Shown: positions 35 through 55,021 of the stretch, piece by piece | How the letters are laid out: every line of letters begins with the position of its first letter | How positions within the stretch are numbered: position 1 is the first letter of the stretch | Assembly (NCBI GenBank): GCA_001822075.1 | Contig: MHPK01000001.1 | Span: 22,757-86,756, forward strand | DNA length: 64,000 nucleotides | Source: Candidatus Staskawiczbacteria bacterium RIFOXYB1_FULL_38_37 | GTDB taxonomy: Bacteria; Patescibacteriota; Minisyncoccia; Minisyncoccales; Staskawiczbacteraceae | Direction of reading: 5' to 3' | Translations under genes and position numbers: made by a program | The notes under the pieces: generated by a model | What the model was told of the DNA's origin: nothing | What the model saw: the letters and a program-made list of their open reading frames with translations, nothing else | Database searches by the model: none

Positions 35-3000
35 TCAAATTATCTGGGTCTTTCTTTTTAAAATAATGACAGACAAAACTATAAGCAAGGCCAGTAAAAG
101 AATGGTTATCAGCCCCAACAACACTCTTTCTATAGTAAACGTCCTCTGCCACCAATTTGCGATTTTGAGCTCAATATTTGTGTGCACGCCCGACCCTTCC
201 TGCACTTCAAAAATATCTCCTTTGTATGGGATATAACCTTCTGCTTTGACCTCTATATAATAAAAACCTTCGGGCACCAAGAATGAGTATTTGCCAGTGT
301 TGTCTGTTGTCTGCGGGTTTTCCTGCTGGAAATCTTTTGCAGGCCATATTTCAAATTGTTTTGTTTCAGGGTTTAGCCAGTAAATTGTGACTTCGGCTCC
401 TTTAATTCGGGCTTCATCGTTGTCTGAAATTTTTCTGTAAACATATCCTTCAGGGTCAACTACCATAATCATATTCAGTTCTGCTGAAGAATAGTCTTGG
501 CTGATGTAATCAATAATTGTTTTAATTTCATACTTGCCAGCCACTGCGGGCGAGGTAATTGTGGCTGTGTAAATGCCATCTTTATCTGAGTCTTGGTATT
601 CAAATTTGTTTAACACCAGTTCTTTGGTGGCTTTAATTTCCTGACCTGGTTGTTGCGGCAAAGTAAAAGCATCTATTAAAGAAGCAGACAAAGCAGGAGA
701 AAGTCCTGCGGCAAACTCTTTTAAGGCAGATTCTGAACTTACAGATTTAAACACAATGTATCCTGTTACTTTTTTAGCTGGTTTGTCTGGTTTTACAATA
801 AGGTATAATGGCTTGTTTTGCAGGGTTGTTATGCTCTTTGTGACGTCGTTGTCTGAGGCTAAAGAAACTTTTGTTTTAAAGTCAATCTTATCTTCTGTAA
901 CTCTGGCAAAGATAAAATTGGTCGGCATTTTAATCTTATCTTTTATGCTGAAGTTTGAAGGGTTAATGCCAGCTGAAACGCGGCCCAAGGTTTCTGCCAG
1001 TCCAGGGAAGCTTAGCTTTGCCACTCTTATCTTTTCTACATCTTCTGGCTTTGTGAATCCTACTTTTTCCAGGGTTTCTTGGAAGCTCGGAAAATCAAGG
1101 GCTAATTGCTTTATCTCGTCTGGCAGAGGAAGTATTGAAATCTCGTTGAATCTTTTTTGCTGGATTAAATTCCACTGATTCTGTAAAGCTGCAGGAGTTT
1201 CTGGAGTTACTGTTTCTTCTATCGGCGGAAAGGATACTTGTTCTGGCTCTTGAAAATTATTGATAATCGTATTTTTGTAGAAATCAGCTGCCTTTTCAGC
1301 TAAGTTGCTTATCTGCTCTGTTGCATTGTTAATTTGATTTGTAATTTGCTGCGCAATTTGGTCTACAGCTTCATCTAAATTATCTAAAATGTTTTCAGCT
1401 TCGGAGCCTTGTTCTTGTCCTGCAAACGGGTTCCAGCTAAATGTTCCCCCTCCGCCTCCGCCGCTGGATAGAGTATAAGAAAGATTTGTATTATTATCTG
1501 CTGTGTTTTCGTTTTCAAGTATGTCCTGGCAAGATATATTGACTGAAAGAGACAGGGCGCTGCTGCCAGAAATACTGCATGTGATAGAAGTTGTTCCTCC
1601 TCCTGAACAATCGTCAGCGCTGGCCATGGCGCTGTATGACAAATCAGAGGCCGAACTTCTGCAATAGCCAGCTTCATTAAGGGTAAAAGAAACAGAAGAA
1701 GGAAGCGAGGACACACCTCCTGCGGCCGGGTTAAAACCAGAGATAGTCGGCGGAGTTGCGTCAATTTCCATTGTGATTTCTTCATTGGTGGCGATTGTGT
1801 CTTTGTTGCCTGCTGTGTCTTGGCAAGCCACATATATGGTTTTACTTGCTGATTCAGCCAGTGTTCCCATTTGGCAGGTAATAGAGGTTGTAGTGTCTCC
1901 AGTACAATTAGTATCGCCTGACATATCGTCGTATGCCTCGTCTGTTTCTGACGCATAACAATCGCCTGCTTCGTCTAATGTAATCAGTATTTCAGGTGAA
2001 GTGTCAGAGATGGAGTAAGGGGCAGAGGTGTCTCCGCCAACACTGGTTACTGTGAGGATGGGAACTGTTGTATCTAATGTGTAAGTTAACGTTTCGTTAG
2101 TATCTGCTGTGTCTTTGTTCGGAGAAACACTGGTGTCGTCTTGGCAGGCGACATACACTGTTTTAGCTCCGTCTGCTCCTAAATCTCCTAACGCGCAGGA
2201 ATGAGAGGTTGATGTTCCCACTGTGCAGTCAGTGTCGTCTGACATCTGGTCGTATGTCTCGTCTCCATCTGTTGAAGCAAAACAATCAGCTGTTTCATCG
2301 GTATCAAATGTAATGGTTGGGGTTGCGTCTGTGATGGTGGATGCAGAGGCTGGGCTGAAGTTGGAAGGAACAGGGGGAGTTGCGTCAATTTCCATTGTGA
2401 TTTCTTCATTGGTGGCGATTGTGTCTTTGTTGCCTGCTGTGTCTTGGCAAGCCACATATATGGTTTTACTTGCTGATTCAGCCAGTGTTCCCATTTGGCA
2501 GGTAATAGAGGTTGTAGTGTCTCCAGTACAATTAGTATCGCCTGACATATCGTCGTATGCCTCGTCTGTTTCTGACGCATAACAATCGCCTGCTTCGTCT
2601 AATGTAATCAGTATTTCAGGTGAAGTGTCAGAGATGGAGTAAGGGGCAGAGGTGTCTCCGCCAACACTGGTTACTGTGGGGACAGCAACAGCGGTGTCTA
2701 AGATAAAGTTTCCCATTTGGGTCCAGGAAGAAGTATCTACGCCGTCATTGTTTTGCGCGCACCAGTAGTAGGTTGCGTCGTTGCCAATGGATGAGCCGTT
2801 TGTCCATGTTGTGTCTTCATTTTCGTCTGCTGTTTCAGAAGAAGTTCCAGAAGCAACAATGTTTGTGTTGCTGACGCAGTCGGCAAGAGAAGAAGAAGAT
2901 ATGCGGTAGTTGGTTGTGCCAACATCGCCTACGTCGGGGTCTGAATAATTGGCAGATAAAGTCGGGGTTGTATCTGTGGTGTATGAGCCGTTGGCTGGAG

Positions 3001-6000
3001 AAACTAATGTCGGCGCATTGGGAGCGGTGTTTGCGGGAGCTCCCCCGCTGTAAACTCCAATTATACCTGTGCCGTAAGAAGAATTGCCTGTGTCCTGATA
3101 GCCAGCCACAAAATTCGTGGTGTCAAGGGCCGCAACAGAAACATAGGCAGTAGAAGCTGAATTAAACGCAGCCTCATCTTCATAAGTAATGTCTGTTCCA
3201 GATATTGTGCCAGCTAAAGCTGTGCCATAAGAAGAGTTGCCTGTGTCTTGATAACCAGCTATAAAATGGGTGGAGTCAAGAGCTGAAACAGAAACATAGG
3301 CGGTAGCAGCTGAATTAAACGGATAGGCAGCGCCATAGGTTATTGTGGTTCCAGATACAGAGCCGATTGCAGCTGTGCCATATGTGTTTGAATCTGTATA
3401 TCCTACCACAAAGCTGGTGGCGCTGAGCTTGGTAAAAGAAATATAGGCCTGAACATCTAACGCAATCATATCTTTCTCTGTGCCATAGCTTATTGTTGTT
3501 CCATCTACTGTGCCGATTCTACTTCTGCCATAGGTGGCAAAAAACCCAAACACAAAACTGGTAGAGCTAAGAGCCGCGACAGAAACATAGGTAACTACTC
3601 CTGTACTAAATGTGGACTGAGTGCCATAACCAGTTATTGTTGTTCCAGATACAACTCCAACTATAGCATATCCCCTATTAGTTGCTGGAGGAACATTACT
3701 TTTGCACAAAACCACAAAATGTGTTGAGTCAAGGGCCGCGACAGAAATAGAAATAGAATTAGCATTAGTTACGGTGTTGAATACACTCTCTGCGCCATAA
3801 GAAGATATTGTTGTTCCAGATACTTCTCCAACTATAGCTGTGCCTACATCAGAGTTGCCTACATCTGAATAAGCAGCCACAAAATGGGTGGAGTCAAGAG
3901 CCGCGACAGAAATATAAGTAGTAGCAGCTGAGTTAAACGCAACCGGGGTGCCGTAACTTATTGTTGTTCCAGATATAGAGCCAACTACAGCTGTGCCATA
4001 TCCGGTTGAATCCCTGTATGCTATCACAAAACTTGTGGAAGTAAGCATGGCAGTAGAAACATAGGTGGTGGAAGCTGATGCGAATGCATTCTCAGCGCCG
4101 TAAGCTATATTGCTTGGGTCAACTATCCAATCAATATCAATGTCACCGCTTATAATCTTTAAGTCAAAAATGTCTGTGGGTGTTCCGAGATTAGTAAGCA
4201 AAATTCCATACATTCCCTCGTGATCTATGCTTTCAAAAGTTGCAACAAGCCCGCCTTGCGTCTGGTTGCCATCTTGGTCTTCATAAATAGGATACACTTC
4301 TATTGTTGCTGGCTGGCCTGGATTTGTTGGTTTAGCATAAATTGTATTGTCTTTTGTATTGTCTAATATTTGCTCAAAAGTAGCTCTAACATAGTGTCCA
4401 TTTGGAACTGTTGCCCATTGATTGTCTTGCGCCACTGTAAGGTCATAAATGTCAGCTACTATTTGCTGGTTTTCATCCATTTCAAATGCTTTGGAAATAA
4501 ATATGATTTCAAATATCTGTTCTGATAAGTGAGGCACTGTCCACTCCACATAATCTAACTTTCCGTTGTTATTGAGGTCAAATGCGTGGAATTCCATTTC
4601 AGCATAGCCATTATCCCGACAGGCTTCTGCCTGTCGTGGATCCTCGACTGCTTCGCAGTCGGGATTTTGCCACTTAATTTTGATTTTGCTTTCCTGTCCT
4701 ACTTTGTAAATTTCTGGAATTGTTGTGTAGGCTAATACATTTGTGATTGGTGGCTGGTCTGGCTGTTCTTCTGCTGAAATTGTAACCAGCTTTCCTTTGT
4801 CTGTTTCTTGTTCTGTGATTTCTGGCGCTGGGGTCTCGTAATCTACTTCAACATATTCTTCGGTTTCTTCTGATTGCTCTATTTCTACAACTTCCTGGTC
4901 TGTTGGAGTCGTTGTTTCAGTTAGTAATTCTCCTGGAAGCTGGATTATTTCCTGGTTAGAAAGAGACACAGGTTCTATGACTGGTATTTCTGGAAGCTCT
5001 GAAATGGCTTCTTGTTCTGACTCATCAATTTCTTCTTGCCGTTCGGATTCTGATTCTACAAACTCCTCTTCAATTGGCTCCTCGCCCGCCTGATTGTCCG
5101 CAGGACTTTCGGCGGGCTCGCCTAACTCAATATCCCCGCCTGAAGCTGCTGCATCATTGCGGGCAGGTTCAGAACTTTGGGCAGGTTCTTCTTCTGCAAT
5201 TTGTTCTTGGGGTTGCTCAGGTTCCTCGCCCGCCTGATTGTCCGCAGGGCTTTCGGCGGGTTGTTGAACTTCTGGTTCAGGCTCTTCTGCTGGAAGCGCT
5301 TCTGAAACATCAACAAACACAGCTTCATTTGTTTCTATAATTTCAGGCTGGGATTCTGCTATACTTTCTGTAATCTGGGCAACTGCGTTTTCTGCGGCTC
5401 CATGGACATCAGCGAGAAAAAATCTGTACACTTTAGACAAAAAATTCTTTGGCTCTGTTTTTGTAAGCTGTTTGCGCTCTTCTGCGGCAAACTGGAACTG
5501 GGAGGTTTCAGCCGAATAGTTTGCTATTGCCAAAGCTTCCTGCTTTGTAATTGATTTTACCTTGATATTCTGGGCGTTTTTCGGAAGCTGGACTAAGTTT
5601 GCGCCGGCTGTAATATCTGATTTTTTAATCACAGCTGACCATTTTACTGTTTGCCCCACAACAGCTGGCGAGGTTTGCTTTGTTAAAGCTGTTTTAATAA
5701 TCTGGCTTTGGCTTATCCGGGGTTTTGGCGAAACAAACCAGGCTGCGGTGAATAAAATACAAAGAGTTAACACAAAAACAGCTATTCCCTGCGCAACACA
5801 AAACGGCCTGAAAGACATATAAAAATTTTTGCCCCGCAGAATATAGGCCTGTTTTTTGATTTTATCTTTTAGAACAGCCAAGAGAGCAGTTGAGCGCTTT
5901 GAAAAGCGCAATTTAATCAACTTAATTTTTCTTTTTATTCTTCTTTTCCAGTATCTTAGGCAATATTTGAAAATCTTTTTTTGAGGCGCCAAAAATTCCC

Positions 6001-6055
6001 TGCTAATCAAAAAAAATCTTGCTTTTTTATTCTTTTTAAAAACTTTTTTTGCCAC
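35..6055 (-). CDS. Giant (2006 aa) membrane-anchored surface protein (putative adhesin)
   Basis: Single uninterrupted ORF. Basic N-terminus plus a TM helix (GIAVFVLTLCILFTAAWFV) is followed by an acidic E/P/Q-rich spacer and seven propeller-like repeats. Next come four Cys-containing Ig-like modules and a CarboxypepD_reg-like segment (GAEVTIYWLNPETKQFE...GKYSFLVPEGFYYIEVKAEGY). A C-terminal TM helix closes the protein. Confidence 0.8.
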   Translation of the reverse strand: MAKKVFKKNKKARFFLISREFLAPQKKIFKYCLRYWKRRIKRKIKLIKLRFSKRSTALLAVLKDKIKKQAYILRGKNFYMSFRPFCVAQGIAVFVLTLCILFTAAWFVSPKPRISQSQIIKTALTKQTSPAVVGQTVKWSAVIKKSDITAGANLVQLPKNAQNIKVKSITKQEALAIANYSAETSQFQFAAEERKQLTKTEPKNFLSKVYRFFLADVHGAAENAVAQITESIAESQPEIIETNEAVFVDVSEALPAEEPEPEVQQPAESPADNQAGEEPEQPQEQIAEEEPAQSSEPARNDAAASGGDIELGEPAESPADNQAGEEPIEEEFVESESERQEEIDESEQEAISELPEIPVIEPVSLSNQEIIQLPGELLTETTTPTDQEVVEIEQSEETEEYVEVDYETPAPEITEQETDKGKLVTISAEEQPDQPPITNVLAYTTIPEIYKVGQESKIKIKWQNPDCEAVEDPRQAEACRDNGYAEMEFHAFDLNNNGKLDYVEWTVPHLSEQIFEIIFISKAFEMDENQQIVADIYDLTVAQDNQWATVPNGHYVRATFEQILDNTKDNTIYAKPTNPGQPATIEVYPIYEDQDGNQTQGGLVATFESIDHEGMYGILLTNLGTPTDIFDLKIISGDIDIDWIVDPSNIAYGAENAFASASTTYVSTAMLTSTSFVIAYRDSTGYGTAVVGSISGTTISYGTPVAFNSAATTYISVAALDSTHFVAAYSDVGNSDVGTAIVGEVSGTTISSYGAESVFNTVTNANSISISVAALDSTHFVVLCKSNVPPATNRGYAIVGVVSGTTITGYGTQSTFSTGVVTYVSVAALSSTSFVFGFFATYGRSRIGTVDGTTISYGTEKDMIALDVQAYISFTKLSATSFVVGYTDSNTYGTAAIGSVSGTTITYGAAYPFNSAATAYVSVSALDSTHFIAGYQDTGNSSYGTALAGTISGTDITYEDEAAFNSASTAYVSVAALDTTNFVAGYQDTGNSSYGTGIIGVYSGGAPANTAPNAPTLVSPANGSYTTDTTPTLSANYSDPDVGDVGTTNYRISSSSLADCVSNTNIVASGTSSETADENEDTTWTNGSSIGNDATYYWCAQNNDGVDTSSWTQMGNFILDTAVAVPTVTSVGGDTSAPYSISDTSPEILITLDEAGDCYASETDEAYDDMSGDTNCTGDTTTSITCQMGTLAESASKTIYVACQDTAGNKDTIATNEEITMEIDATPPVPSNFSPASASTITDATPTITFDTDETADCFASTDGDETYDQMSDDTDCTVGTSTSHSCALGDLGADGAKTVYVACQDDTSVSPNKDTADTNETLTYTLDTTVPILTVTSVGGDTSAPYSISDTSPEILITLDEAGDCYASETDEAYDDMSGDTNCTGDTTTSITCQMGTLAESASKTIYVACQDTAGNKDTIATNEEITMEIDATPPTISGFNPAAGGVSSLPSSVSFTLNEAGYCRSSASDLSYSAMASADDCSGGGTTSITCSISGSSALSLSVNISCQDILENENTADNNTNLSYTLSSGGGGGGTFSWNPFAGQEQGSEAENILDNLDEAVDQIAQQITNQINNATEQISNLAEKAADFYKNTIINNFQEPEQVSFPPIEETVTPETPAALQNQWNLIQQKRFNEISILPLPDEIKQLALDFPSFQETLEKVGFTKPEDVEKIRVAKLSFPGLAETLGRVSAGINPSNFSIKDKIKMPTNFIFARVTEDKIDFKTKVSLASDNDVTKSITTLQNKPLYLIVKPDKPAKKVTGYIVFKSVSSESALKEFAAGLSPALSASLIDAFTLPQQPGQEIKATKELVLNKFEYQDSDKDGIYTATITSPAVAGKYEIKTIIDYISQDYSSAELNMIMVVDPEGYVYRKISDNDEARIKGAEVTIYWLNPETKQFEIWPAKDFQQENPQTTDNTGKYSFLVPEGFYYIEVKAEGYIPYKGDIFEVQEGSGVHTNIELKIANWWQRTFTIERVLLGLITILLLALLIVLSVIILKRKTQII
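1752..2678 (-). repeat. Two perfect 303-bp direct repeats (1752-2054 and 2376-2678, offset 624 bp) inside the giant gene
   Basis: Hand alignment of the two stretches shows identity breaking at 1751/2375 and 2055/2679. Both encode the identical module TVTSVGGDTSAPYSISDTSPEILITLDEAGDCYASETDEAYDDMSGDTNCTGDTTTSITCQMG...EIDATPP. A diverged third copy lies between them and a fourth lies downstream. Confidence 0.9.
3045..4102 (-). repeat. Seven tandem ~45-55-aa repeats (beta-propeller-like) within the giant gene
   Basis: Recurring pattern YG(A/T)..xF(N)SA.T.Y(V/I)SVAALDSTHFV.(A/G)Y.D....YGTA.(V/I)G..SGTTI(S/T) is seen seven times in the translation. Confidence 0.7.
5077..5260 (-). repeat. Two copies of a ~40-bp GC-rich hairpin-capable element, in frame, 144 bp apart
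   Basis: cctcgcccgcctgattgtccgcagg(a/g)ctttcggcggg occurs starting at 5080 and at 5224. Both copies translate as PAESPADNQAGEEP. Stem cccgcc/ggcggg. Confidence 0.8.
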
Positions 6056-6851: not shown

Positions 6852-8285
6852 ATGGATAAGTTCAATTTTTTAGCAAAAAATAAGTTAGACAACCTCCCGA
6901 AAACCAGCGGAGTATATTTGTTTTACGCCAAAAACAATAAAACGCCTATTTATATTGGCAAAGCAATAAGCATTAAAAATAGAGTAAAAAACCATTTTCA
7001 GGGAAAAAATTGGTGGGAGAAAACCCTCCTTCGCCAAGCCTGCCTGCCGGCAAGGCAGGGCTTCGGCGGGCAAGTTGGCTATTTTGAAACAAATTCTGAA
7101 ATTGAAGCATTAATTTTGGAAGCTAATTTAATCAAAAAATACCAGCCCAAATATAATGTAATGTGGCGGGACGATAAAAATTATTTTTATGTTGCCATCG
7201 CAAAAAATGAAAATGAAATTCCCTATGTGTTTATCACCCACCAGAAAAATCAAAAAAAGACTGAATACGTGGGTCCCTTCACAGAAGGCACGGCTCTTAA
7301 AAAAACTTTACGATTTTTAAGGCGAGCATTCCCCTATTATTCGATAAAAAAACATTCAAAATTAAAATGCGCATACTGCCATTTAGATTTATGTCCTGGT
7401 CCTTACGAACAATTGTTTGCGCCTCGCCTTGGCGGGCTCGGCGCGCCAAATGCGTTTGGCGAATACAAAAAAAATATCAAAAAATTAATTTTGATATTAA
7501 AAGGGAAAAGAAAAACTGTTTTAAATTCTCTTAGAAAAGAAATGAAACAGCTGGCAAAAAATAGAGAATTTGAAAAAGCCGGAAAAATCAGGGACGAAAT
7601 TTATGCTTTGCAGCAAGTTATGCAACATACTCATGTAATCAGCGGAAACGAAATCAGCGGAAACGAATATGACGAGTTTTTGCCGTACGGCAAAAACTCG
7701 TATTCACCCGGTTTTAAAACCCTGCAAAAAATTGTAGGAATAAAAAATGATATTAACAGAATAGAATGTTATGATGTTTCAAATATACAAGGAAAACAAG
7801 CCACGGGCTCTATGATTGTTTTTATAAACGGCAAACCGGACAAAAATCAGTACAGAAAATTCAGAATTAAAATGGAAAATGAGCCAAATGACATTGCAAT
7901 GTTAAAAGAAACAATCAGCAGGCGCTTGCAACATTCAGAATGGCCGTATCCTGAAATAATGCTTATTGATGGCGGAAAAGGCCAATTAAATGCCGCTATC
8001 GCGGCAAAATCCGAAATCCTAAATCCGAAATCCGAAACACCTGCCCGCATCGGCTGCGCCGAAGGCGTTGCAGGCGGGAATTCAAAATTCGAAATTCAAA
8101 ACATAAAAGTCGTATCCATTGCAAAAGGCGGGCAGGAGCTGTTTATTGAAGGCAAAAATAAACCCATTCCGCTTAAAAGTTTACCGCAGGAAATTTATAA
8201 TCTGATTTTGCAGTTAGACAGCGAAGCTCATCGGTTTGCAATAAGTTATCATAAAAATTTAAGAAAAAAGAACTTAATGCCTTAA
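6852..8285 (+). CDS. uvrC: Excinuclease ABC subunit C (short form, carrying repeat-derived insertions)
   Basis: N-terminal GIY-YIG motifs (SGVYLFY...PIYIGKA...RVKNHF) and a UVR motif (REFEKAGKIRDEIYALQ). C-terminal nuclease-half motif IECYDVSNIQG. No terminal (HhH)2 is evident. Confidence 0.85.
   Translation: MDKFNFLAKNKLDNLPKTSGVYLFYAKNNKTPIYIGKAISIKNRVKNHFQGKNWWEKTLLRQACLPARQGFGGQVGYFETNSEIEALILEANLIKKYQPKYNVMWRDDKNYFYVAIAKNENEIPYVFITHQKNQKKTEYVGPFTEGTALKKTLRFLRRAFPYYSIKKHSKLKCAYCHLDLCPGPYEQLFAPRLGGLGAPNAFGEYKKNIKKLILILKGKRKTVLNSLRKEMKQLAKNREFEKAGKIRDEIYALQQVMQHTHVISGNEISGNEYDEFLPYGKNSYSPGFKTLQKIVGIKNDINRIECYDVSNIQGKQATGSMIVFINGKPDKNQYRKFRIKMENEPNDIAMLKETISRRLQHSEWPYPEIMLIDGGKGQLNAAIAAKSEILNPKSETPARIGCAEGVAGGNSKFEIQNIKVVSIAKGGQELFIEGKNKPIPLKSLPQEIYNLILQLDSEAHRFAISYHKNLRKKNLMP
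7039..7074 (+). repeat. GC-rich composite element in frame in uvrC (palindrome cctgcctgccggcaaggcagg + ggcttcggcgggcaag)
   Basis: Translates as CLPARQGFGGQV within otherwise AT-rich uvrC. The palindrome recurs at 39662-39681 and the 16-mer recurs (reverse complement) at 45882-45897. Confidence 0.8.
8006..8102 (+). repeat. Composite insertion in uvrC: (aaatccga)x4, a GC-rich core, then (gaaattc/aaaattc) array
   Basis: aaaatccgaaatcctaaatccgaaatccgaaacacctgcccgcatcggctgcgccgaaggcgttgcaggcgggaattcaaaattcgaaattcaaaac. It stays in frame (KSEILNPKSETPARIGCAEGVAGGNSKFEIQN). Confidence 0.8.
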
Positions 8286-11611: not shown

Positions 11612-11694
11612 GCGGGTATGGCGGAACAGCAGACGCGCTAGCTTCAGGAGCTAGTGGGAGTAATCCTGTGGAGGTGCAAATCCTCCTACCCGCA
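11612..11694 (+). tRNA. tRNA-Leu (anticodon CAG), class II with long variable arm
   Basis: Hand fold gives a 7-bp acceptor GCGGGTA/TACCCGC and an anticodon stem CTAGC/GCTAG with loop TTCAGGA. The T arm is GGAGG/CCTCC and the discriminator is A. No CCA is encoded. Confidence 0.85.
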
Positions 11695-13436: not shown

Positions 13437-13459
13437 CGGAGTCCCGGACTCCGTTTTTT
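13437..13459 (+). terminator. 17-nt perfect palindrome cggagtcCcggactccg + T-run. Serves as the rnj terminator and as copy 1 of the RAYT-flanking palindrome
   Basis: Lies 13 nt after the rnj stop and 19 nt beyond the RAYT stop. The central base is inverted relative to copies 2 and 3. Confidence 0.75.
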
Positions 13460-13471
13460 ACCGTTTTTTAA

Positions 13472-14182
13472 TTACTCTAATAAAATTGCCTGATGCTGAC
13501 TTAACTTTCTTTTATATTCAATCCAATTCTCAATTGCCTCCTTACATCCAACTACTCCATTCAATGTTTCTGATAAAAATTTCCTTTCTGTAACCGATGG
13601 AAAATTATTTTCACCAATATAATCGCTATAACTCGACCATTTATAATCTTCTAAAAAACTTACCGCCTTATCTAAATTATCAATTCCATTTTCTTTCCAT
13701 CCTGGTTCAATTAAAGATATAGGATTTACATGGATATAATTAAAAATTGTTCTTAATTGATTATCGTCTCCGATAGGAACAGAACGGAATCTATTTTGAA
13801 AAACATAACCTTTGCGTTTATATTTTCTGTTAAAATATCCAGCATAACCCGAACCCGATTTATTCATAAACTTAACTATTCCGCCATTTTTTACCTGCTT
13901 TAACAATAAATGAATGTGATTTGGCATAAAACAAAATGCCAATATATCCACTAGTTTTTCCCTTTTATCAACCACGGAGTCCGGGACTCCGCTGGTTTTT
14001 TCACGCTTCCTTTCCTCCCTTCTTTTTCTAATTTCTATGTGCTTGGCATTATTGAACTCGTAGATAGAAAAAATGCCACGATAATAATCGTTTATATCTT
14101 TAAAAATTAAACTGTCATCTAATCCGCGTATAATAATATGATAAATTTCGTCGTTGGTGAATTGTTCTTTTCTTTGTGGCAT
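13472..14182 (-). CDS. IS200/IS605-like Y1 (HUH) transposase, RAYT-like
   Basis: HUH motif in FCFMPNHIHLLL and a catalytic-Tyr region FNYIHVNPI. The N-terminus MPQRKEQFTNDEIYHIIIRG is typical of COG1943 proteins. No second IS gene (tnpB) is present. Confidence 0.8.
   Translation of the reverse strand: MPQRKEQFTNDEIYHIIIRGLDDSLIFKDINDYYRGIFSIYEFNNAKHIEIRKRREERKREKTSGVPDSVVDKREKLVDILAFCFMPNHIHLLLKQVKNGGIVKFMNKSGSGYAGYFNRKYKRKGYVFQNRFRSVPIGDDNQLRTIFNYIHVNPISLIEPGWKENGIDNLDKAVSFLEDYKWSSYSDYIGENNFPSVTERKFLSETLNGVVGCKEAIENWIEYKRKLSQHQAILLE
13975..13991. repeat. Copy 2 of palindrome cggagtccgggactccg, inside the RAYT ORF (in frame, ...TSGVPDSV...)
   Basis: Exact 17-mer. The extended match caaccacggagtccgggactccgctgg compares with caactgcggagtccgggactccgcttg at 14227-14253. 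Confidence 0.85.
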
Positions 14183-14232
14183 ATTTCTATTATAGCAAAA
14201 AATCATAAAAAGTGGCCAACCACGGTCAACTG

Positions 14233-14249
14233 CGGAGTCCGGGACTCCG
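14233..14249. repeat. Copy 3 of palindrome cggagtccgggactccg, 51 nt upstream of the RAYT start
   Basis: Exact 17-mer read from the sequence. Confidence 0.85.
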
Positions 14250-20596: not shown

Positions 20597-21058
20597 ATGA
20601 AAGCATACGAATTAACATATATAATCTCGCCCGAAATCACAAGCGAAGAGGCAAACACATTGGCAAAAGAAATTGAATCCTTTATCCAAAATAAAGGGGC
20701 TGTTGTTTTAGGCCACAGCCAGCCTGTTGCAAAAACCCTGTCATATCCCATAAAATCTCATGCTTCAGGGTTTATGATATCTTTGGAGTTTCATGCAGAA
20801 TCTGAAATAATAGAAGAAATAAAAGAAAAAATAAATAAAAATGAAAAAATCGTCCGGCACATTATTGCAATAAAAAAACCTTTAAAAATACGTAAAGAAA
20901 GAAGGGCAAAACAGCCCGTATCGCCCATCCTAAAAAAAGAAGATGCGATAGAGCGCAAAGAACTTCAAGAATCGGACACCCATAAAACTTCTATTGAAAA
21001 AGAAAAAATAGAGCTAAAAGATATAGAGCAAAAATTAAACGAAATACTCGGCGAGTAA
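20597..21058 (+). CDS. rpsF: 30S ribosomal protein S6 with charged C-terminal extension
   Basis: MKAYELTYIISPE start and position in the rpsF-ssb-rpsR order. Confidence 0.85.
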   Translation: MKAYELTYIISPEITSEEANTLAKEIESFIQNKGAVVLGHSQPVAKTLSYPIKSHASGFMISLEFHAESEIIEEIKEKINKNEKIVRHIIAIKKPLKIRKERRAKQPVSPILKKEDAIERKELQESDTHKTSIEKEKIELKDIEQKLNEILGE

Positions 21059-21067
21059 TTAGCCATC

Positions 21068-21131
21068 AACGAATAACGAATCAATACGAATATACGAATT
21101 CGTAAATTCGTAAGAAATTCGTAATTCGACG
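21068..21131. repeat. Inverted array of 8-nt tandem units (acgaatNN)x4 :: (NNattcgt)x4 centred on acgaattcgt
   Basis: aacgaataacgaatcaatacgaatatacgaattcgtaaattcgtaagaaattcgtaattcgacg fills the rpsF-ssb spacer. Confidence 0.8.
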
Positions 21132-21138
21132 ATGTTCC

Positions 21139-21687
21139 ATGAATTTAAACAAATCTTTTGTCTTAGGAAATGTAACCCGCGACCCGGAAGTAAGGTCGTT
21201 GCCTTCCGGCCAGCAAGTAACCAGCTTCGGACTGGCCACAAACAGATTTTATACTTCCGGCGCCGGAGAAAAAAAACAGGAAGTTGAATTTCATAATATT
21301 GTCTGTTTTGGAAAATTGGCTGACATAAGCTCAAGATATTTAAATAAGGGTTCTCTGGTTTTAATTGAAGGAAGGATAAAAACAAGAAATTGGGTAAATT
21401 CACAGGGAATCAAACAATACAGGACAGAAATAATAGCAGAAAGCATGCAATTGGGCCCCAAGGGAGCGGGTTCACCGAATGCATCGAGAACATCAAATTA
21501 TGGAAAATCATTTTCCCGCCCCGAGCCGGAACAGCCAAACAATCCGACAGCTGGCGGAGACGAGATACCTGTTATAGAAGAAAATTATCCTCTGCCACAA
21601 GCAGAGCTGACATCAAATAGTCCCAAAGAAACTCCTTTTGAGGGAGACGCCGCAGATGAAATCGACGTTCGCGATATACCATTTTAA
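21139..21687 (+). CDS. ssb: Single-stranded DNA-binding protein
   Basis: OB-fold N-terminus (NKSFVLGNVTRDPEVR...FHNIVCFGKLA), a G/P/N-rich linker and an acidic tail ending DIPF. Confidence 0.9.
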   Translation: MNLNKSFVLGNVTRDPEVRSLPSGQQVTSFGLATNRFYTSGAGEKKQEVEFHNIVCFGKLADISSRYLNKGSLVLIEGRIKTRNWVNSQGIKQYRTEIIAESMQLGPKGAGSPNASRTSNYGKSFSRPEPEQPNNPTAGGDEIPVIEENYPLPQAELTSNSPKETPFEGDAADEIDVRDIPF

Positions 21688-21766
21688 CGAAATCCGAAGC
21701 GCGAAATCCGAAATCCGAAATAAATTCAAAACGTTTCGAATTTCGAAATTCGAATTTCGAATTTCT
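21688..21766. repeat. Inverted array: (cgaaatc)n, spacer, (cgaattt)n, starting immediately after the ssb stop
   Basis: cgaaatccgaagcgcgaaatccgaaatccgaaataaattcaaaacgtttcgaatttcgaaattcgaatttcgaatttc. Confidence 0.8.
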
Positions 21767-21783
21767 TTTACGAAGTAAAAGTT

Positions 21784-21978
21784 ATGTGTTATTTTTGCCA
21801 AAAAAATATTGAAGACATAGATTTTAAAAACACAGAGATGCTTTCGCGCTATGTGTCTGGTTTTTATAAAATAAAACCAAGAAAAAAAACAAATCTTTGT
21901 TCTCATCATCAAAAAAAGATTGCCACAGCAATAAAAAGAGCCCGCCAAATGGGCTTAATGCCGTATACTCCAAAATAA
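21784..21978 (+). CDS. rpsR: 30S ribosomal protein S18
   Basis: CYFC...IDFKNTEMLSRYVS...KI.PRK.T.LC..HQKKIATAIKRARQMGLMPY is canonical S18. Confidence 0.9.
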   Translation: MCYFCQKNIEDIDFKNTEMLSRYVSGFYKIKPRKKTNLCSHHQKKIATAIKRARQMGLMPYTPK

Positions 21979-22349: not shown

Positions 22350-22389
22350 ATCTTTAGAAAATTTAATAATTTAAAAATTAAAAATTTCG

Positions 22390-25668: not shown

Positions 25669-26283
25669 TTAGTTAGTAAATTTAAAAGTAGGAAGAATTT
25701 GATTATAAGCTGATATACAATCACTTACACGTACAGCAGAAGACGCCGCCCGATAACCAATATAATATTTTTTTCCATCATGTTCTAAAATCGAAAGTTG
25801 ATATGTTTTAGTATCTTTTATTATAGATAAAAAATTATCATCAATGTTCGGGTATACATATAAATCGCACCCATACTTTAGCATAGCAACAAAAATTTCT
25901 TTATATGATGAATCTTTATAAAAATCGCGCTCCTGCATAGAAATATCGTCTTGAGAAAGCATTTCGTTTATTGGAAATTTTATCTCAAAACTATATTTGT
26001 CGCTCGTAAATGTTTTCCATTCGGCGGTTTGGTTTACAATCGGGCAAGCGGTAAATTCGCAGTTGGGGCCTGAACGGCCAACACTAGATCCATCGGGACA
26101 AATTTTTGCATCTGTTGTGCAGGCAGTTTGGTTTTGGTCATTGGGGTTTTGTTGGTCATTGGGGTTTGGGATTTGGGATTTTAAATAATATTCATAAGCA
26201 AACACTCCTCCAAAGGCAAAAGCCGCCACAACAATAAAAATTGTAATGCCTGCTATAGTTGAAATACCTTTTTGTGTTTTCAT
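25669..26283 (-). CDS. Hypothetical membrane-anchored protein (204 aa)
   Basis: N-terminal TM (ISTIAGITIFIVVAAFAFGGVFAY), a PNPNDQ duplication and a Cys-rich knot (CTTDAKICPDGS...CEFTACP). Confidence 0.5.
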   Translation of the reverse strand: MKTQKGISTIAGITIFIVVAAFAFGGVFAYEYYLKSQIPNPNDQQNPNDQNQTACTTDAKICPDGSSVGRSGPNCEFTACPIVNQTAEWKTFTSDKYSFEIKFPINEMLSQDDISMQERDFYKDSSYKEIFVAMLKYGCDLYVYPNIDDNFLSIIKDTKTYQLSILEHDGKKYYIGYRAASSAVRVSDCISAYNQILPTFKFTN

Positions 26284-28295: not shown

Positions 28296-28745
28296 ATGAA
28301 GATTTATTCAGAAAACAAAAAGGCCTTATTTGATTATAATATCCTTGAAAATTTTGAAGCAGGGCTGGTTTTGTTCGGCCAGGAAGTAAAATCAATAAAA
28401 ACTGGGCATATCAATTTAGCCAGTTCTTATATTATATTAAAAAGCCAAGAGCCGTTTTTGGTGGGAGTAAAAGTGCCTCCATACCAGCCAAATAACGTCG
28501 GGTCTGACTATAATGACGAAAGGCAGAGAAAGCTTCTTTTAAACAAAAAAGAGATAAATTATTTAGTCGGGAAGACAAAAGTAAAGGGTTTTTCGCTCAT
28601 CCCCTTGAAAATTTATGAGAAGAATGGTAGAATAAAACTTGAATTCGGGTTAGCTAAGGGCAAAAAAAAATACGATAAAAAAGAGAAAATAAAGAAACGC
28701 GACGTTGAACGCGAGATAAACAGAGAGTTAAGTTCACGGGGATGA
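28296..28745 (+). CDS. smpB: SsrA-binding protein SmpB
   Basis: KKALFDYNILENFEAGLVLFGQEVKSIK and the GKKKYDKKEKIKKRD tail are typical SmpB features. Confidence 0.93.
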   Translation: MKIYSENKKALFDYNILENFEAGLVLFGQEVKSIKTGHINLASSYIILKSQEPFLVGVKVPPYQPNNVGSDYNDERQRKLLLNKKEINYLVGKTKVKGFSLIPLKIYEKNGRIKLEFGLAKGKKKYDKKEKIKKRDVEREINRELSSRG

Positions 28746-29084
28746 TTGTTTCGATGGATTGTTCTTTAAAATAAGGCAAGTTGAGCTTCCTTGGGGCTCT
28801 TTAATCTTTCAAGGAAAAACATAATTGCTAATTTATTTAATAAGCAACCTGCGTTAGCTTTCGCTTAATGCGGCATCTTCACCATTGACTCCTAATAAAT
28901 GAATGAAGGTGTTATATTATTAGGATAGGAAATTTTATTCCTCGGGGAATTTCCGAGATTTACGAGGATAAGGCATTAAAAATTTTGTTAGTTTTCTATT
29001 TAATGCTCGAACATCAAAACTGACTAAACTTGTAGAATTATTTTAAAAAACTTTCTAGACGAGGATTCACCTCCTCCATCTCCA
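28738..29084 (+). ncRNA. ssrA: tmRNA (ssrA), tag peptide ANLFNKQPALAFA
   Basis: The 5' GGGGATGATTGTTTCGA pairs with the 3' CATCTCC+A. T-arm GAGGA/TCCTC. Resume codon GCT at 28827 and tag ORF 28827-28868 ending TAA. Lies adjacent to smpB. Confidence 0.85.
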
Positions 29085-29106
29085 CAAATAAAATTTAATA
29101 AATTCA

Positions 29107-34044: not shown

Positions 34045-34176
34045 ATTAAATTATTAACCGACTATTAAAAATTAAATAATTAAAAATTATTTAAAAATTA
34101 AAAATTGGAAATTAAAAATTTTAACTGATTATTACTTAATAATACCCCCCCCGTAAAAAAACACAACAGCTGTCAA

Positions 34177-35901
34177 CTATTTAAAATATTTTAATAATTC
34201 TTCAACTGGCAGGGTGTTTATAATATCTGATTTTTCTGCCCATCCGCGGCGCGCCATTGAAACCCCGTATTCCATTAAATTTAATTGTTCTTTCTGGTGC
34301 GAGTCAGTATTTATTATCATTTTTATTCCTTGATTTTTAGCGCGCCTTATATATAAATCGCGCAAATCCAATCTGTCGGGAGAGGAATTAATTTCTAAAA
34401 TAGTCCCAGTTTCTTTTGCGACTTCTAAAATCTTATCAAAATCTAATTGATACTCGTCTCTTTTTCCAATGAGCCTGCCTGTCGGATGAGAAATAATATC
34501 TATATTAGGATTTCTCATTGCTTTTATCAGCCTTTGAGTCATTTCCTGCTTTGGCATTTTTAAACTTGAATGCGCGCCGGCAATCACATAATCTAATTTC
34601 TCCAAAACATCGTCTTTAATATCAACGTTTCCGTCGTTCATTATATTTGCCTCGCAGCCGTGCAGTATTCTGAATTTGGAATTTTGAATTTGGAATTTTG
34701 AATTTAATTTTTCTATTTCTTTATGTTGGTCTAATAATTGTTTTTCATTTAATCCATGTTCAATGCGTAAAAATTTTGTATGGTCTGAAATACCGATATA
34801 TTCATAGCCTGCATCTATGGCTGATTTTGCCATTTGCTCAATTGAATTTTCTCCGCCGTCCCAATCTGAATGACAGTGCAAATCTCCCTTAATATCTTTT
34901 AATTCAATAATTTTTGGCAATTCTCCTTTTAAAGCTGCTTCAATTTCTCCTTCATTTTCTCTTAATTCCGGCTCAATATATGGCAAGCCAATAGCCTTAT
35001 AGACATCTTCTTCTGTTTTTCCTGCAATTTGTTTTTTGTCCCTGAATACCCCGTACTCTGAAAGCTTCAACCCCTTATTAATAGCAATACGTCTTGTTGC
35101 CACATTGTGGTCTTTGTTTCCTGTAAAATATTGTAAAGCTGACCCATAGCTTTTTTGAGGCACAATTCTTATATCAATATCAAACCCCTCTTTTATTCTT
35201 ACAGATGATTTTGTCGGTCCTTTTGCCCAAACTTTTTCAACTCCGTCTAATTTAACAAAAAAATCCATAACTTTTTTTGGATTTTCTGAAACGGCCAAAA
35301 TATCAACGTCGCCAATTGTTTCTTTTCTTCTTCTCACAGAGCCCGCCAAACTGATTTTTTCAACTTCTTTTAAGTTTTTTAATTTTTCAACAACATTTCT
35401 TGCCGCCGGCAAAATCTTTCCCAATAGAAACCTTCCCTTGTCCCTTTTCAAAAACTCCAAACCCTGTAAAATATTCTTTTCTGTTTTTTCGCCAAACCCG
35501 AAAAGCGGAGCTATTTTATGGGCTTTGGCTGCTTTTTCTAAATCTTTTAAATTTTTAACTCCTAATTTTTGATAAAGAACTTTAGCCTTTCTGGCTCCCA
35601 TGCCCTCAACTCTTACTAAGCCATCTAAATCAATAGGCAATTTCTTTTTCTGCGCCTCATAATGTTTTATTCTCCCTGTTTTTAAATATTCTTCTATATG
35701 GTCCGCAATCGCCTTGCCTACGCCAGGTATCTCCATTAAAGCTTTTACTCCGCCTTTTTTGTAAATATCTCCCACATACTCTGAAAGCGACTCTAAAGAC
35801 ATGGCAGCTCTTTCATACGCATAAGGCTTAAAGGCCACTCTTTCCATTCTAAGAAATCTTGCCATATCATTAAAAATTTTAGCTATCTCCTGATTCCTCA
35901 T
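34177..35901 (-). CDS. polX: Family X DNA polymerase with C-terminal PHP domain (PolX)
   Basis: HhH motifs (GVGKAIADHI, GMGARKAKVLY), the NT core GSVRRRKETIGDVDIL and the PHP motif DLHCHSDWDGG...HP. Confidence 0.9.
   Translation of the reverse strand: MRNQEIAKIFNDMARFLRMERVAFKPYAYERAAMSLESLSEYVGDIYKKGGVKALMEIPGVGKAIADHIEEYLKTGRIKHYEAQKKKLPIDLDGLVRVEGMGARKAKVLYQKLGVKNLKDLEKAAKAHKIAPLFGFGEKTEKNILQGLEFLKRDKGRFLLGKILPAARNVVEKLKNLKEVEKISLAGSVRRRKETIGDVDILAVSENPKKVMDFFVKLDGVEKVWAKGPTKSSVRIKEGFDIDIRIVPQKSYGSALQYFTGNKDHNVATRRIAINKGLKLSEYGVFRDKKQIAGKTEEDVYKAIGLPYIEPELRENEGEIEAALKGELPKIIELKDIKGDLHCHSDWDGGENSIEQMAKSAIDAGYEYIGISDHTKFLRIEHGLNEKQLLDQHKEIEKLNSKFQIQNSKFRILHGCEANIMNDGNVDIKDDVLEKLDYVIAGAHSSLKMPKQEMTQRLIKAMRNPNIDIISHPTGRLIGKRDEYQLDFDKILEVAKETGTILEINSSPDRLDLRDLYIRRAKNQGIKMIINTDSHQKEQLNLMEYGVSMARRGWAEKSDIINTLPVEELLKYFK
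34669..34705. repeat. AT-rich 7/8-nt tandem array (gaatttg gaattttg)x2.3, in frame in polX
   Basis: tctgaatttggaattttgaatttggaattttgaattt translates on the minus strand as KFQIQNSKFRI within the PHP domain region. Confidence 0.8.
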
Positions 35902-39604: not shown

Positions 39605-40585
39605 TTATTTATTTATTCTTGAAACTCTTGTAAATCCAGAGCACGTTACAATTTCAATTCCCCTGCCTGCCGGCAGGCAGGTTGCCTTTTCAAGTTCGTC
39701 CATCAATAAATTTACGCCCAAAGAATCAGACGAAATGTGGCCTGCAATTACAATATTTATGTGCGAGGCCTCTGCCTCTTTTTTATGCTCTTCTGAAATG
39801 TGCATGCCAACTACTGTTCCGATGCCTGCCTGCGCCATTTTTTCATAAAGCTTTGGCGATCCTTCAGTTCCTCCTGTAATTTCAGCCATTGATATTTTAC
39901 CACAGCGGTTGTCAGCAGAGCCCACAAAAATTTTAGGGCCGACTCCGATTTTCATTGCCTCTTTATATTCTGGAATTTCTTTTAATATGCTTATTAAGTC
40001 AGAAACTCTTTCAACTTCTTTGCCTTCAATTAAATCTTTTAAAAATTTAGCAGCTAAATTGTCGCAGGGAGTGTGCGAGTTCATTAAGTTAACTTTCATT
40101 AATCTGGCGGCGTCAACTGTTCTGTTGTGGTTTGAACTGTTTACCCCTCGAGCAACTTCTGAAATTCTTTCTCTCATCAATCCCTCTGAAATGTTGATTG
40201 GCACTCCGTAATAAGCTAAAACATCGCACTGCAAATCCATAACATCAGCCAATTGCGCCAAACCCTTGCCCACAGGATGATGGGCAATTACCAAATCAAT
40301 ATCTCCTAATTGCTTTGCCATTAAAATTTCTTCGGGGCCTATGTCAATGCCAACCAAAACTTTTTTAATATCTTTATCGTCTGAAATATTATAAACTCCT
40401 GAATCCAAATACGGATTTTCTAAAGCATCTTTATCAAAGTCTTCTTTTTCTATTTCTGAAAGCTTTTCAAATTTATCTTTTTTCCTATCTAAAAATTTTC
40501 GCACTCCGTCTGCGCCCCTGAAATCAGCTTCCGTGCCCATTTTTATCATTAAATTGTAAATATCTTGTATTCGCATAATTTTCAA
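39605..40585 (-). CDS. NIF3/YbgI-family (DUF34) dinuclear-metal protein, long form
   Basis: The DLVIAHHPVG and IAGHISSDSLG motifs resemble NIF3 metal-binding His clusters. A C-terminal GC-rich palindrome is inserted in frame. Confidence 0.55.
   Translation of the reverse strand: MKIMRIQDIYNLMIKMGTEADFRGADGVRKFLDRKKDKFEKLSEIEKEDFDKDALENPYLDSGVYNISDDKDIKKVLVGIDIGPEEILMAKQLGDIDLVIAHHPVGKGLAQLADVMDLQCDVLAYYGVPINISEGLMRERISEVARGVNSSNHNRTVDAARLMKVNLMNSHTPCDNLAAKFLKDLIEGKEVERVSDLISILKEIPEYKEAMKIGVGPKIFVGSADNRCGKISMAEITGGTEGSPKLYEKMAQAGIGTVVGMHISEEHKKEAEASHINIVIAGHISSDSLGVNLLMDELEKATCLPAGRGIEIVTCSGFTRVSRINK
39662..39681. repeat. Perfect 20-nt palindrome cctgcctgccggcaggcagg, in frame in the NIF3-like gene
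   Basis: Translates (minus strand) as ...CLPAGRG.... Same family as 7039-7059 in uvrC. Confidence 0.85.
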
Positions 40586-40587
40586 TT

Positions 40588-40743
40588 TTAAATTTTCAAT
40601 TTTAAATGTTTGTTATTTAAAATTTTATCGTATAGCTGGCCAATCATTTCTTTTTGCTTTTTTGAATCCAAAAACTGCCGCCTTATGCGGGCTTTTTCTG
40701 TGCGTATAAATTTTCTGGTTGATTTTGGCATTTTTTTGTTCAT
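40588..40743 (-). CDS. Possible small basic protein (51 aa), below the ORF-track cutoff
   Basis: ATG at 40743. Sequence MNKKMPKSTRKFIRTEKARIRRQFLDSKKQKEMIGQLYDKILNNKHLKLKI, ending 3 nt before the NIF3 start. No motif. Confidence 0.3.
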   Translation of the reverse strand: MNKKMPKSTRKFIRTEKARIRRQFLDSKKQKEMIGQLYDKILNNKHLKLKI

Positions 40744-42292: not shown

Positions 42293-42422
42293 GGTAAACT
42301 CCCTTCAATCCGTTAAGGTTGTGAAAGAACAAACAAAAACCTCTTTTCGAGAAGAGGCGCTTTGACTAATTTTTAATTTTTCAATTTTGTAATTTTTAAA
42401 ACGCGCCTTCTCTAAGAGAGGT

Positions 42423-42486
42423 TTACCCGATTAAATAAAATCTTTAGATTTTAATTTTGTGAAACAAAATTATTTAACCGGGTTAA
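42423..42486. repeat. MITE-like element, copy 1: 16-nt terminal inverted repeats ttacccgattaaataa ... ttatttaaccgggttaa
   Basis: Hand alignment. A related copy lies at 58599-58675. Confidence 0.55.

Positions 42487-52990: not shown

Positions 52991-55021
<2,031 letters not shown>

Follow-up and report, generated by a model that had tools for sequence, protein, structure and literature searches.

The 64,000-nt stretch analysed here (the window; contig MHPK01000001.1, positions 22,757 to 86,756) comes from Candidatus Staskawiczbacteria bacterium RIFOXYB1_FULL_38_37 and carries the genes uvrC, rpsF, ssb, rpsR, polX and the prepilin peptidase gene pilD, the identities of which were confirmed by Pfam. 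Short AT-rich arrays of tandem 7-nt units lie in the ssb-rpsR spacer and, in frame, within uvrC, polX and pilD, and a hairpin of facing short repeats occupies the rpsF-ssb spacer (Table 1). The arrays constitute a genome-specific heptanucleotide tandem repeat family of the kind of the cyanobacterial short tandemly repeated repetitive (STRR) sequences and other long simple sequence repeats (SSRs). Their unit is an AT-rich quasi-palindrome, AAATYCR, with the core GAATTT/AAATTC. The uvrC product and a protein of Candidatus Staskawiczbacteria bacterium RIFOXYC1_FULL_37, which belongs to the Candidate Phyla Radiation (CPR), are 100% identical.

Heptamer arrays in the window

Arrays were located with Tandem Repeats Finder (TRF) and by direct reading of the sequence, and those listed in the first-pass annotation of this DNA were found to be present. 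TRF returned 7 non-overlapping arrays of period 7 with at least 3 copies, against a mean of 0.22 in 40 shuffles which preserved the local composition; for periods 6, 8 and 9 there were 2-3 arrays. Comparable arrays in a shuffled sequence had been named as an outcome that would discredit the repeats, and the shuffles contained almost none. A stricter self-match scan gave 5 arrays versus 0. When up to 2 mismatches were allowed, the sequence AAATCCGAAATCC had 16 matches in the window (3.6 expected) and AAATTCRAAATTC had 17 (2.2 expected). Assembly or polishing errors had also been considered as a source of the arrays. This is contradicted by the array-bearing proteins, which were assembled identically on 35-48 contigs deposited in several sources (NCBI, JGI, ENA and Logan).

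Most arrays of the window belong to the main unit family AAATYCR, which comprises AAATCCG, AAATCCC and AAATTCR. The unit AAATCCG is found in uvrC, the ssb-rpsR spacer and pilD, and AAATCCC in the open reading frame (ORF) starting at 25669, which together make four loci in 64 kb. AAATTCR also occurs at four loci: uvrC, the ssb-rpsR spacer (inverted), polX and pilD. One unit family thus occupies at least 8 sites. The arrays are about 31 bases long; pieces of 23-96 nt are built of tandem 7-mers and share no common non-repetitive consensus. Eight of the 15 listed arrays lie wholly within ORFs and one further array overlaps an ORF end. The coding arrays in the hypothetical ORF and in ligA are additions to the first-pass list.

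Some of the earlier descriptions had to be amended. The arrays were said to be arranged as inverted pairs, which holds for the rpsF-ssb and ssb-rpsR spacers only; the array pairs of uvrC and pilD are in direct orientation. The 8-nt unit ascribed to the rpsF-ssb spacer is actually the hexamer ACGAAT, irregularly spaced at 7-11 nt. Arrays upstream of several genes (22354-22387, 34064-34120, 40577-40627 and 42367-42399) do exist, but they consist of A and T only, are of lower complexity and are mostly assigned other periods by TRF. These A/T-only, low-complexity arrays may or may not belong to the heptamer class. The array at 42367 forms the loop of an inverted repeat, the arms of which are 81% complementary; an array within a hairpin loop is the reverse of the nesting seen in uvrC (see below). 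Elsewhere in the window, a 2006-residue ORF (35-6055, minus strand) contains a 153-nt tandem duplication at 3067-3357 (1.9 copies, 80% identical).

Table 1 Arrays, hairpins and associated genes in the window
Feature	Position	Strand	Remark
uvrC	6852-8285	+	Pfam
(AAATCCG)4.4 in frame, uvrC	8007-8037	+	encodes KSEILNPKSE
GC-rich hairpin core between the uvrC arrays	8040-8078	+	encodes PARIGCAEGVAGG
(AAATTCR)3.3 in frame, uvrC	8079-8102	+	encodes NSKFEIQN; TRF (AATTCAA)3.3 at 8079-8101
Palindrome CGGAGTCCSGGACTCCG, perfect copies	13437-13453, 14233-14249, 13975-13991		first two flank the Y1 transposase gene, third in frame inside it
RAYT-like Y1 transposase gene, 244 aa	13472-14206	-	Pfam Y1_Tnp; context, not shown as part of the array family
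rpsF, ssb, rpsR	20597-21978	+	Pfam
rpsF-ssb spacer hairpin	21064-21134	.	four ACGAAT facing four ATTCGT, centre ACGAATTCGT
ssb-rpsR hairpin, left arm	21688-21722	+	(CGAAATC)n, AAATCCG family; TRF 4.9 copies at 21688-21721
ssb-rpsR hairpin, right arm	21734-21765	-	(TTTCGAA)4.6 on +, (AAATTCG)n on -
A/T-only array	22354-22387		low complexity
(AAATCCC)3.3 in frame, hypothetical ORF 25669-26283	26159-26181	-	encodes SQIPNPN
(ATTAAAA)8, A/T-only, period 7, intergenic	34064-34120	+	TRF; low complexity
polX	34177-35901	-	Pfam
(AAATTCA AAATTCC)2.8 in frame, polX PHP domain loop	34667-34705	-	encodes NSKFQIQNSKFR
A/T-only array	40577-40627		low complexity
(TAATTTT)4.4, loop of 27-nt inverted repeat (42337-42363/42398-42424)	42367-42399	+	TRF
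(TACAAAA)4.6 in frame, ligA	53220-53251	-	encodes 11-residue peptide
pilD, prepilin peptidase	57672-58589	-	Pfam
(AAATCCG)4.4, perfect, pilD	57992-58022	+	gene on - reads CGGATTT, encodes FRISDFGFRI
Degenerate (AAAATYC)n after junction AAACAAAT, pilD	58035-58064	+	encodes FEFGILDFENLN on -
(AAATTTR)n, pilD	58190-58242	+	encodes LNFKFQILNEIQILNF; equivalent segment in most orthologues

Coding copies, spacer hairpins and their conservation

The coding copies in uvrC, polX and pilD are in frame, as had been proposed, since Pfam domains were matched on both sides of each array, and the encoded peptides are indeed rich in F, I, L, N, K and Q. The polX array is in frame as described; it replaces a loop, with a net gain of 4 residues relative to Thermus PolX (3AU2). 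The intact frames had been taken as a sign of selection on total array length. They merely reflect the ordinary requirement for multiple-of-three indels in essential genes: the frame is intact because only inserts of such length with units that are stop-free in the sense strand survive there.

The uvrC element is composite. Its two arrays share their orientation and are separated by a 39-nt core with a GC content of 0.62 (0.37 for the gene), so that a GC-rich hairpin is nested exactly at the junction which is contiguous in pilD. The array at 8007-8037 is an insertion at a hypervariable site when compared with orthologues. UvrC orthologues have 410-523 residues and differ at a handful of such sites, several of which carry inserts in the window gene. 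These inserts coincide with the regions of the AlphaFold2 model of UvrC where the predicted local distance difference test (pLDDT) score is below 50 (residues 64-68, 195-199, 260-284 and 395-408). In five uvrC orthologues, most lineage-specific inserts can form hairpins (z as low as -3 to -6.6); some have a GC content of 0.55-0.74, compared with 0.35-0.41 for the genes, and the others are of the heptamer type. The orthologue P0019 carries a composite AAATCCC...AAACAAATC...AAAATTC at a different uvrC site. In pilD, the loop containing FRISDFGFRI holds the same cassette, the heptamer-like peptide ENWNLKIEN or nothing, depending on the orthologue.

Other in-frame mini-inserts were observed in uvrC (7038-7067, 7413-7454, 7637-7667 and 7672-7701), pilD (58421-58500) and ligA (54483-54533). 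Most of them are hairpins richer in GC than the genome, which has about 37%. Among these inserts are a 30-bp palindrome that is perfect, a tandem duplication of 15 nt and the 23-nt palindrome GGTGGGGTGTCGGACACCCCACC, which is duplicated. Recurring peptide cassettes (RTLRGASNKNLKI, TLRRGSG, VRNSSLASEISNGAG, LFENPPSPKASEGL and LRRLRAPRND) were found among the UvrC orthologues, some of them at different sites in different orthologues. One protein of the window UvrC cluster, P0123, is identical through residue 382 and then continues with a P0002-type C-terminus without the heptamer element. It is probably a recombinant or an assembly chimera, and because of the switch to P0002-like sequence it was not accepted as a true uvrC variant lacking the array.

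The rpsF-ssb hairpin, 71 nt long, starts 6 nt past the rpsF stop codon and ends 4 nt before the ATG of ssb. Its predicted RNA folding energy is -26 kcal/mol on the plus strand and -30.4 kcal/mol on the minus strand, with z about -6. The same element occupies the same site in the related loci L123, L157, L178/179 and L193. L121 and L122, the SSB proteins of which are 86-88% identical, lack it. No further copies were found away from that site. By a count from the alignment, the hairpins of the window and L178 are about 93% identical, whereas the SSB proteins are only 69% identical.

The arms of the ssb-rpsR hairpin pair in each unit by 6 bp plus one C.A mismatch (G.U on the minus strand), and the predicted energies are -23.8 kcal/mol on the plus strand and -33.1 kcal/mol on the minus strand. 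A small hairpin (21765-21781) immediately precedes the ATG of rpsR. The AAATCCG hairpin is missing in relatives with 84-88% identical SSB. The layout is the same in L190, where both arms are altered together (CTAAAT/ATTTAG vs. CGAAAT/ATTTCG) and the periodic C.A mismatch is kept. In 62 relatives the length of this spacer ranges from 1 to 144 nt and is 25 nt or less in 14 of them. About 12 of the 62 have heptamer arrays there, most of them facing inverted pairs made of other units (CCAATTT, ACAATTT, TGAAACA, AAATCCT and AAAACGT); other relatives carry GC-rich structures. The architecture of the hairpins in the relatives' spacers, six pairs and one mismatch per heptamer, is the same. Recurring motifs other than heptamers were also observed in this spacer about 25-90 nt upstream of rpsR in L121-L200, e.g. 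agaacggaacaagaa...ttcatcctccgctcat, gatttcctcgcttcgctcgtaaatc right before the ATG, and a long stem ccccgccctcta...tagagggcgggg. These motifs may be structured rpsR leaders.

Folding of the coding arrays is confined to one strand. The G/T-rich strand complementary to the uvrC arrays folds with -39.1 kcal/mol (z -2.7), and the pilD segments 57992-58022 and 58035-58064 fold together on the minus strand only (-19.8 kcal/mol, z -2.2). The A/C-rich strand does not fold in either case, and folding is likewise restricted to the G/T-rich strand in the P0019 composite. The G/T-rich strand folds despite the direct orientation of the arrays because the unit is a quasi-palindrome around AATT, in which GGAUUU pairs with GGAUUU or GAAUUU via G.U. 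The polX and ORF 25669 arrays do not fold alone. The foldable strand is antisense to uvrC and the ssb operon and sense in pilD; any role at the RNA level would therefore have to vary by site.

The arrays are stable between strains. In two strains 99.7-99.98% identical to the window, no indels were found over 16 kb that include five arrays, and the arrays are unchanged in all protein variants within the 90% clusters. The slippage polymorphism that had been anticipated was thus not observed, and the arrays are not contingency loci. An apparent 47-nt strain indel at 51424-51492 proved to be a stretch of N within a scaffold and was discarded. At greater distance, turnover of the spacers is complete. 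At the DNA level the coding arrays are more conserved than the neighbouring codons. The 42-nt pilD cassette aatttaaatttgtttcggatttcggatttcggatttcggatt (array and junction, 57994-58035) is identical to that of L283 at 41 of 42 nt, whereas the rest of the gene is 74% identical; 13 of its 14 third codon positions agree, versus 59% elsewhere in the gene. In two further orthologues the cassette is 83-86% identical and the rest of the gene 67-69%. Such conservation is not predicted by neutral slippage in situ and has to be explained by constraint, by conversion from other copies or by a recent re-insertion.

Occurrence elsewhere and origin of the arrays

The preference for period 7 extends beyond the window. 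In 204 kb around ssb of 80 relatives there were 32 period-7 arrays and 5-7 arrays for periods 6, 8 and 9. Among exact arrays at 120 loci of many phyla, counted with AAATCCG excluded, 68 had period 7 and at most 7 had any of the periods 5, 6, 8, 9 and 10. At least 120 genomes from many phyla contain exact (AAATCCG)x3, some of them with 60-70% GC. Array size is strikingly uniform, with a median of 4.4 units; the exact AAATCCG runs peak at 31-33 nt and exceed 34 nt in only 12 of 158 cases (data on array size come from L001-L120, which are genome contigs, and L201-L225). The coding placement of these arrays could not be assessed from stop-to-stop ORFs (68% vs. 72% for random positions), since the unit is stop-free and spurious long ORFs abound in high-GC genomes. 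Ten cases were scanned with Pfam instead: eight arrays lie inside a Pfam domain match and two between domains. The proteins hosting AAATCCG arrays in frame in other phyla are a class I aminoacyl-tRNA synthetase, PheT, PolA (DNA polymerase I), ArgRS, DnaE, SecA, PPDK and Dus. In-frame (AAATCCG)3-4 was noted at L047, L048, L093, L078, L084, L114, L056 and L053, with hosts including Phycisphaeraceae (69% GC), Saprospiraceae, Saccharibacteria and another Patescibacteria genome. When (KSEIRNP)6 was searched against proteins, all the matches were short hypothetical ORFs; matches within long proteins score too low in such a search.

A single mobile element travelling across phyla was considered as an explanation of this distribution and rejected. 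In viral contigs, scrambled heptamers of the same composition formed 30, 5 and 16 arrays of three units compared with 25 for AAATCCG, and the flanks of AAATCCG arrays elsewhere are mostly unrelated. The spread is therefore a general phenomenon of heptamer arrays. The junction AAACAAAT or AAATAAAT is common to only 12 of 164 arrays. Where it occurs, (AAATCCG)n is followed by AAACAAAT (AAATAAAT in three cases) and then by degenerate YCNAAAT units, and this arrangement recurs in unrelated phyla. The former variant is present in L001, L043, L045, L092, L099, L120, L214, L219 and at 58023-58030 of the window, the latter in L054, L056 and L078; related junctions were seen in the uvrC gene of L277, in L034 and in L114.

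With somewhat less than even confidence, we favour the reading that the arrays are small, non-autonomous hairpin repeats which are maintained as DNA sequence and tolerated where a site is permissive. The G/T-rich (CGGATTT)n folds, through G.T or G.U pairs, either back on itself or with an adjacent AAATTCR array, with six pairs and one mismatch per unit, and the arrays would behave as selfish or near-neutral DNA. A process acting on DNA would place arrays of about 31-34 nt at new sites, or copy them from one site to another, and they would be held close to the family consensus. They would survive only where they are harmless, i.e. between cistrons, and in protein loops and linkers if the insert is divisible by three in length and consists of units that are stop-free in the sense strand. 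The genes of this lineage carry a wider load of mini-inserts that form hairpins, and the heptamer arrays would be its AT-rich component. Their spread may proceed by hairpin-assisted slippage combined with copying or conversion, the Y1 transposase of the window being a candidate only, and the arrays presumably have no cellular function. Several observations weigh against this reading. No donor, intermediate or mobilising enzyme is tied to the heptamer arrays, and the palindrome flanking the transposase gene is GC-rich and differs from the heptamer units. The conservation above synonymous sites is equally compatible with function. The rpsF-ssb hairpin, found at one site only, resembles a conserved cis element more than it does a mobile element, and at the boundary between its presence in L123 and absence in L121 there is no target-site duplication; the spacer is replaced. 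The wide phyletic spread of AAATCCG is not evidence for one mobile element, and the evidence from within the genome covers 64 kb of it.

The transposase gene at 13472-14206 is intact and IS200-like, with HUH and Tyr motifs. Its product scores 43 bits with Pfam Y1_Tnp (cut-off 23) and 44.6 with the NCBIfam model of the transposases associated with repetitive extragenic palindromic sequences (REP; RAYT), which is below the cut-off of 80. It is 61% identical to a Y1 transposase adjoining a pilD orthologue. The palindrome CGGAGTCCSGGACTCCG has only three copies in the window, the internal one encoding TSGVPDS, and a related palindrome is present in frame in a uvrC orthologue. No heptamer array adjoins the gene and nothing ties the two together. 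The gene with its own palindromes is a REP/RAYT arrangement (PMC3116915), and the enzyme is a plausible route for the GC-rich hairpin inserts.

Pure SSRs, generated in situ by slippage of a chance heptamer duplication, would require neither spread between loci nor function, and the hairpin potential would be a by-product of AT-rich units that contain AATT. The heptamer excess is general and independent of the unit, with many units in relatives and other phyla and scrambled controls about as frequent as AAATCCG, most arrays of which elsewhere have unrelated flanks. Polymerase slippage is also the process credited in the literature (PMC4679880, citing Mrazek et al. 2007). This explanation is nevertheless rather unlikely here. 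The sharing of one unit class by three arrays would arise by chance with a probability of roughly 1e-4 (a rough estimate), and here one family holds at least 8 sites in 64 kb. Array lengths are capped at about 31-34 nt with no geometric fall-off, strains show no polymorphism, the arrays are more conserved than synonymous sites, and hairpin arms change jointly. Equally unlikely in our view is that the arrays are functional cis elements, i.e. that the spacer hairpins are intercistronic processing or stabilising structures, or sites for a repeat-binding protein, tuning rpsF, ssb and rpsR, with the coding copies kept for an RNA or DNA role. The strength of the rpsF-ssb hairpin, which fills the spacer up to the ssb start, its restriction to this site, its high identity across lineages in which the flanking codons have diverged, the covariation of the ssb-rpsR arms between the window and L190, and the third-position conservation of the pilD cassette all argue for such a function. 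Relatives manage without these structures, with ssb-rpsR spacers as short as 1-25 nt and no rpsF-ssb hairpin in L121 and L122. The foldable strand has no consistent RNA orientation (antisense in uvrC and ssb-rpsR, sense in pilD), and the polX and ORF 25669 arrays do not fold. Rfam gave no match at the arrays; its sole matches at the gathering score in the window were the tmRNA and a tRNA (the tmRNA gene, 104 bits, lies at 28738-29087 and the tRNA gene at 11612-11694). An intrinsic terminator consists of a GC-rich stem followed by a T-run. A terminator scan of the window did not flag the arrays, whose AT-rich stems with periodic mismatches are unlike the GC-rich stems with T-runs evident in this genome.

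A further alternative is that the arrays are miniature elements resembling REP doublets (REPINs) or miniature inverted-repeat transposable elements (MITEs), which the RAYT-like transposase would move by cut-and-paste in the form of single-stranded hairpins. The intact enzyme, its flanking and internal palindromes, the related palindrome in a uvrC orthologue and the presence/absence variation between close relatives fit this view. So does the nesting of a GC hairpin within the uvrC composite and of a heptamer array within the GC-stemmed hairpin 42337-42424, which resembles REPIN-into-REPIN insertion (PMC3116915). We consider it improbable, since the flanking palindrome is unrelated to the heptamer units, no array adjoins the gene, neither target-site duplications nor conserved ends were found, several arrays are direct repeats without hairpin potential and the RAYT score is below the cut-off. 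That the arrays are hypermutable contingency loci for phase variation, or products of assembly and polishing, is scarcely credible. Units not divisible by three could in principle switch frames, but no copy-number change was found in cluster variants or strains, the hosts are housekeeping genes with intact frames, identical proteins were assembled on 35-48 contigs from four sources, and the same four-unit habit has been reported in cultured Xanthomonas and Nostoc genomes (PMC4692102). Finally, there is a small chance, only marginally better than that given to the transposase, that a dedicated, widespread and unit-indifferent process writes heptamer arrays of about 31-34 nt (4-5 units), e.g. 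by insertion, templated or primed by a hairpin, into breaks or into the single-stranded loops of hairpins. This would account at once for the length cap, the period of 7 across phyla, the in-frame arrays of housekeeping genes and the conservation above synonymous sites, and CPR genomes like this one would be a compact system for finding the enzyme.

Comparison with known repeat families

Heptanucleotide arrays have reportedly been known since Mazel et al. described the cyanobacterial STRR sequences in 1990. The first-pass annotation did not recognise the repeat class, and yet both the over-representation of heptanucleotides and genome-specific heptamer families of about four units have already been published (PMC4679880, PMC4692102). 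In most of the repeat-rich genomes surveyed, no other long simple repeats are as strongly over-represented as heptanucleotides (PMC4679880, citing Mrazek et al. 2007). TAACTGA arrays have been described in Beggiatoaceae, Cyanobacteria and Bacteroidetes (PMC4679880), and GGGNATC arrays in Xanthomonas and Nostoc show a preference for about four units which was attributed to G-quadruplexes (PMC4692102). The G-quadruplex account cannot apply to the AT-rich units of the window.

The window arrays share with the STRR, TAACTGA and GGGNATC families the tandem 7-nt units, the excess of period 7, the use of one favoured family per genome over many dispersed loci (within 64 kb in our case) and the habit of about four units per array. 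They also share the frequent position just past a stop codon or before a start codon, including ribosomal-protein operons, the occasional copies in ORFs, and the lack of a known mechanism of spread. In contrast to those families, the window unit is an AT-rich quasi-palindrome with no G-quadruplex potential, the arrays are often paired as hairpin arms, and the host is a small-genome CPR bacterium. The published families are under-represented in coding sequence, whereas more than half of the window arrays (8 of 15 wholly within ORFs) are in frame in housekeeping genes.

This in-frame habit recalls the Rickettsia palindromic elements (RPEs), palindromic inserts said to lie in frame in protein genes, as Ogata et al. 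are reported to have described in Science in 2000. Both are hairpin repeats in frame in conserved genes, which add a peptide at permissive and probably surface sites and leave the protein intact; for the window arrays the permissive sites are indicated by Pfam, the orthologue alignments and pLDDT below 50 at the uvrC inserts. RPEs are 100-150 bp long with a defined consensus and without heptamer periodicity, whereas the elements described here are tandem 7-mers of 23-96 nt with no shared palindromic consensus of that length. MITEs are defined by terminal inverted repeats, a target-site duplication and a related full-length insertion sequence (IS). The target-site duplication was lacking at the L121/L123 boundary, and no related IS was seen in a scan of part of the window's ORFs. 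The copy-number variation between strains that marks phase-variable contingency SSRs was not found, nor were the Rfam matches and the stem structure expected of known RNAs and intrinsic terminators.

The ORF-internal repeat units of Borgs are reportedly divisible by three. The unit of the window has 7 nt, so that the peptide period is 7 residues per 21 nt. Borg tandem repeats, which create disordered protein regions, likewise arise within ORFs, keep the frame and add low-complexity peptides, but they are perfect, recent and fast-evolving (PMC9879509), whereas the window arrays are short and stable and some are old enough for orthologues to share them. REP/REPIN sequences with their RAYT enzymes (PMC3116915, PMC3733652) are similarly short imperfect palindromes, often in inverted doublets and conserved at the DNA level, and the window has a RAYT-like gene with palindromes of its own. 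REPs are extragenic and GC-rich with a GTAG or CGTC head, whereas the heptamer arrays are AT-rich, often intragenic, without such a head, and do not flank the RAYT-like gene.

The window arrays are therefore not wholly new. They are real members of the under-studied class of bacterial heptanucleotide repeats (PMC4679880, PMC4692102), with an RPE-like in-frame habit. Annotators should be aware that repeat-derived inserts account for many of the odd low-complexity peptides and differences in length seen among CPR proteins. The quasi-palindromic unit suggests why the arrays fold and persist. Together with the in-frame arrays in essential genes, the length cap and the conservation beyond that of the codons, it makes the question of why such repeats are heptamers a testable one.

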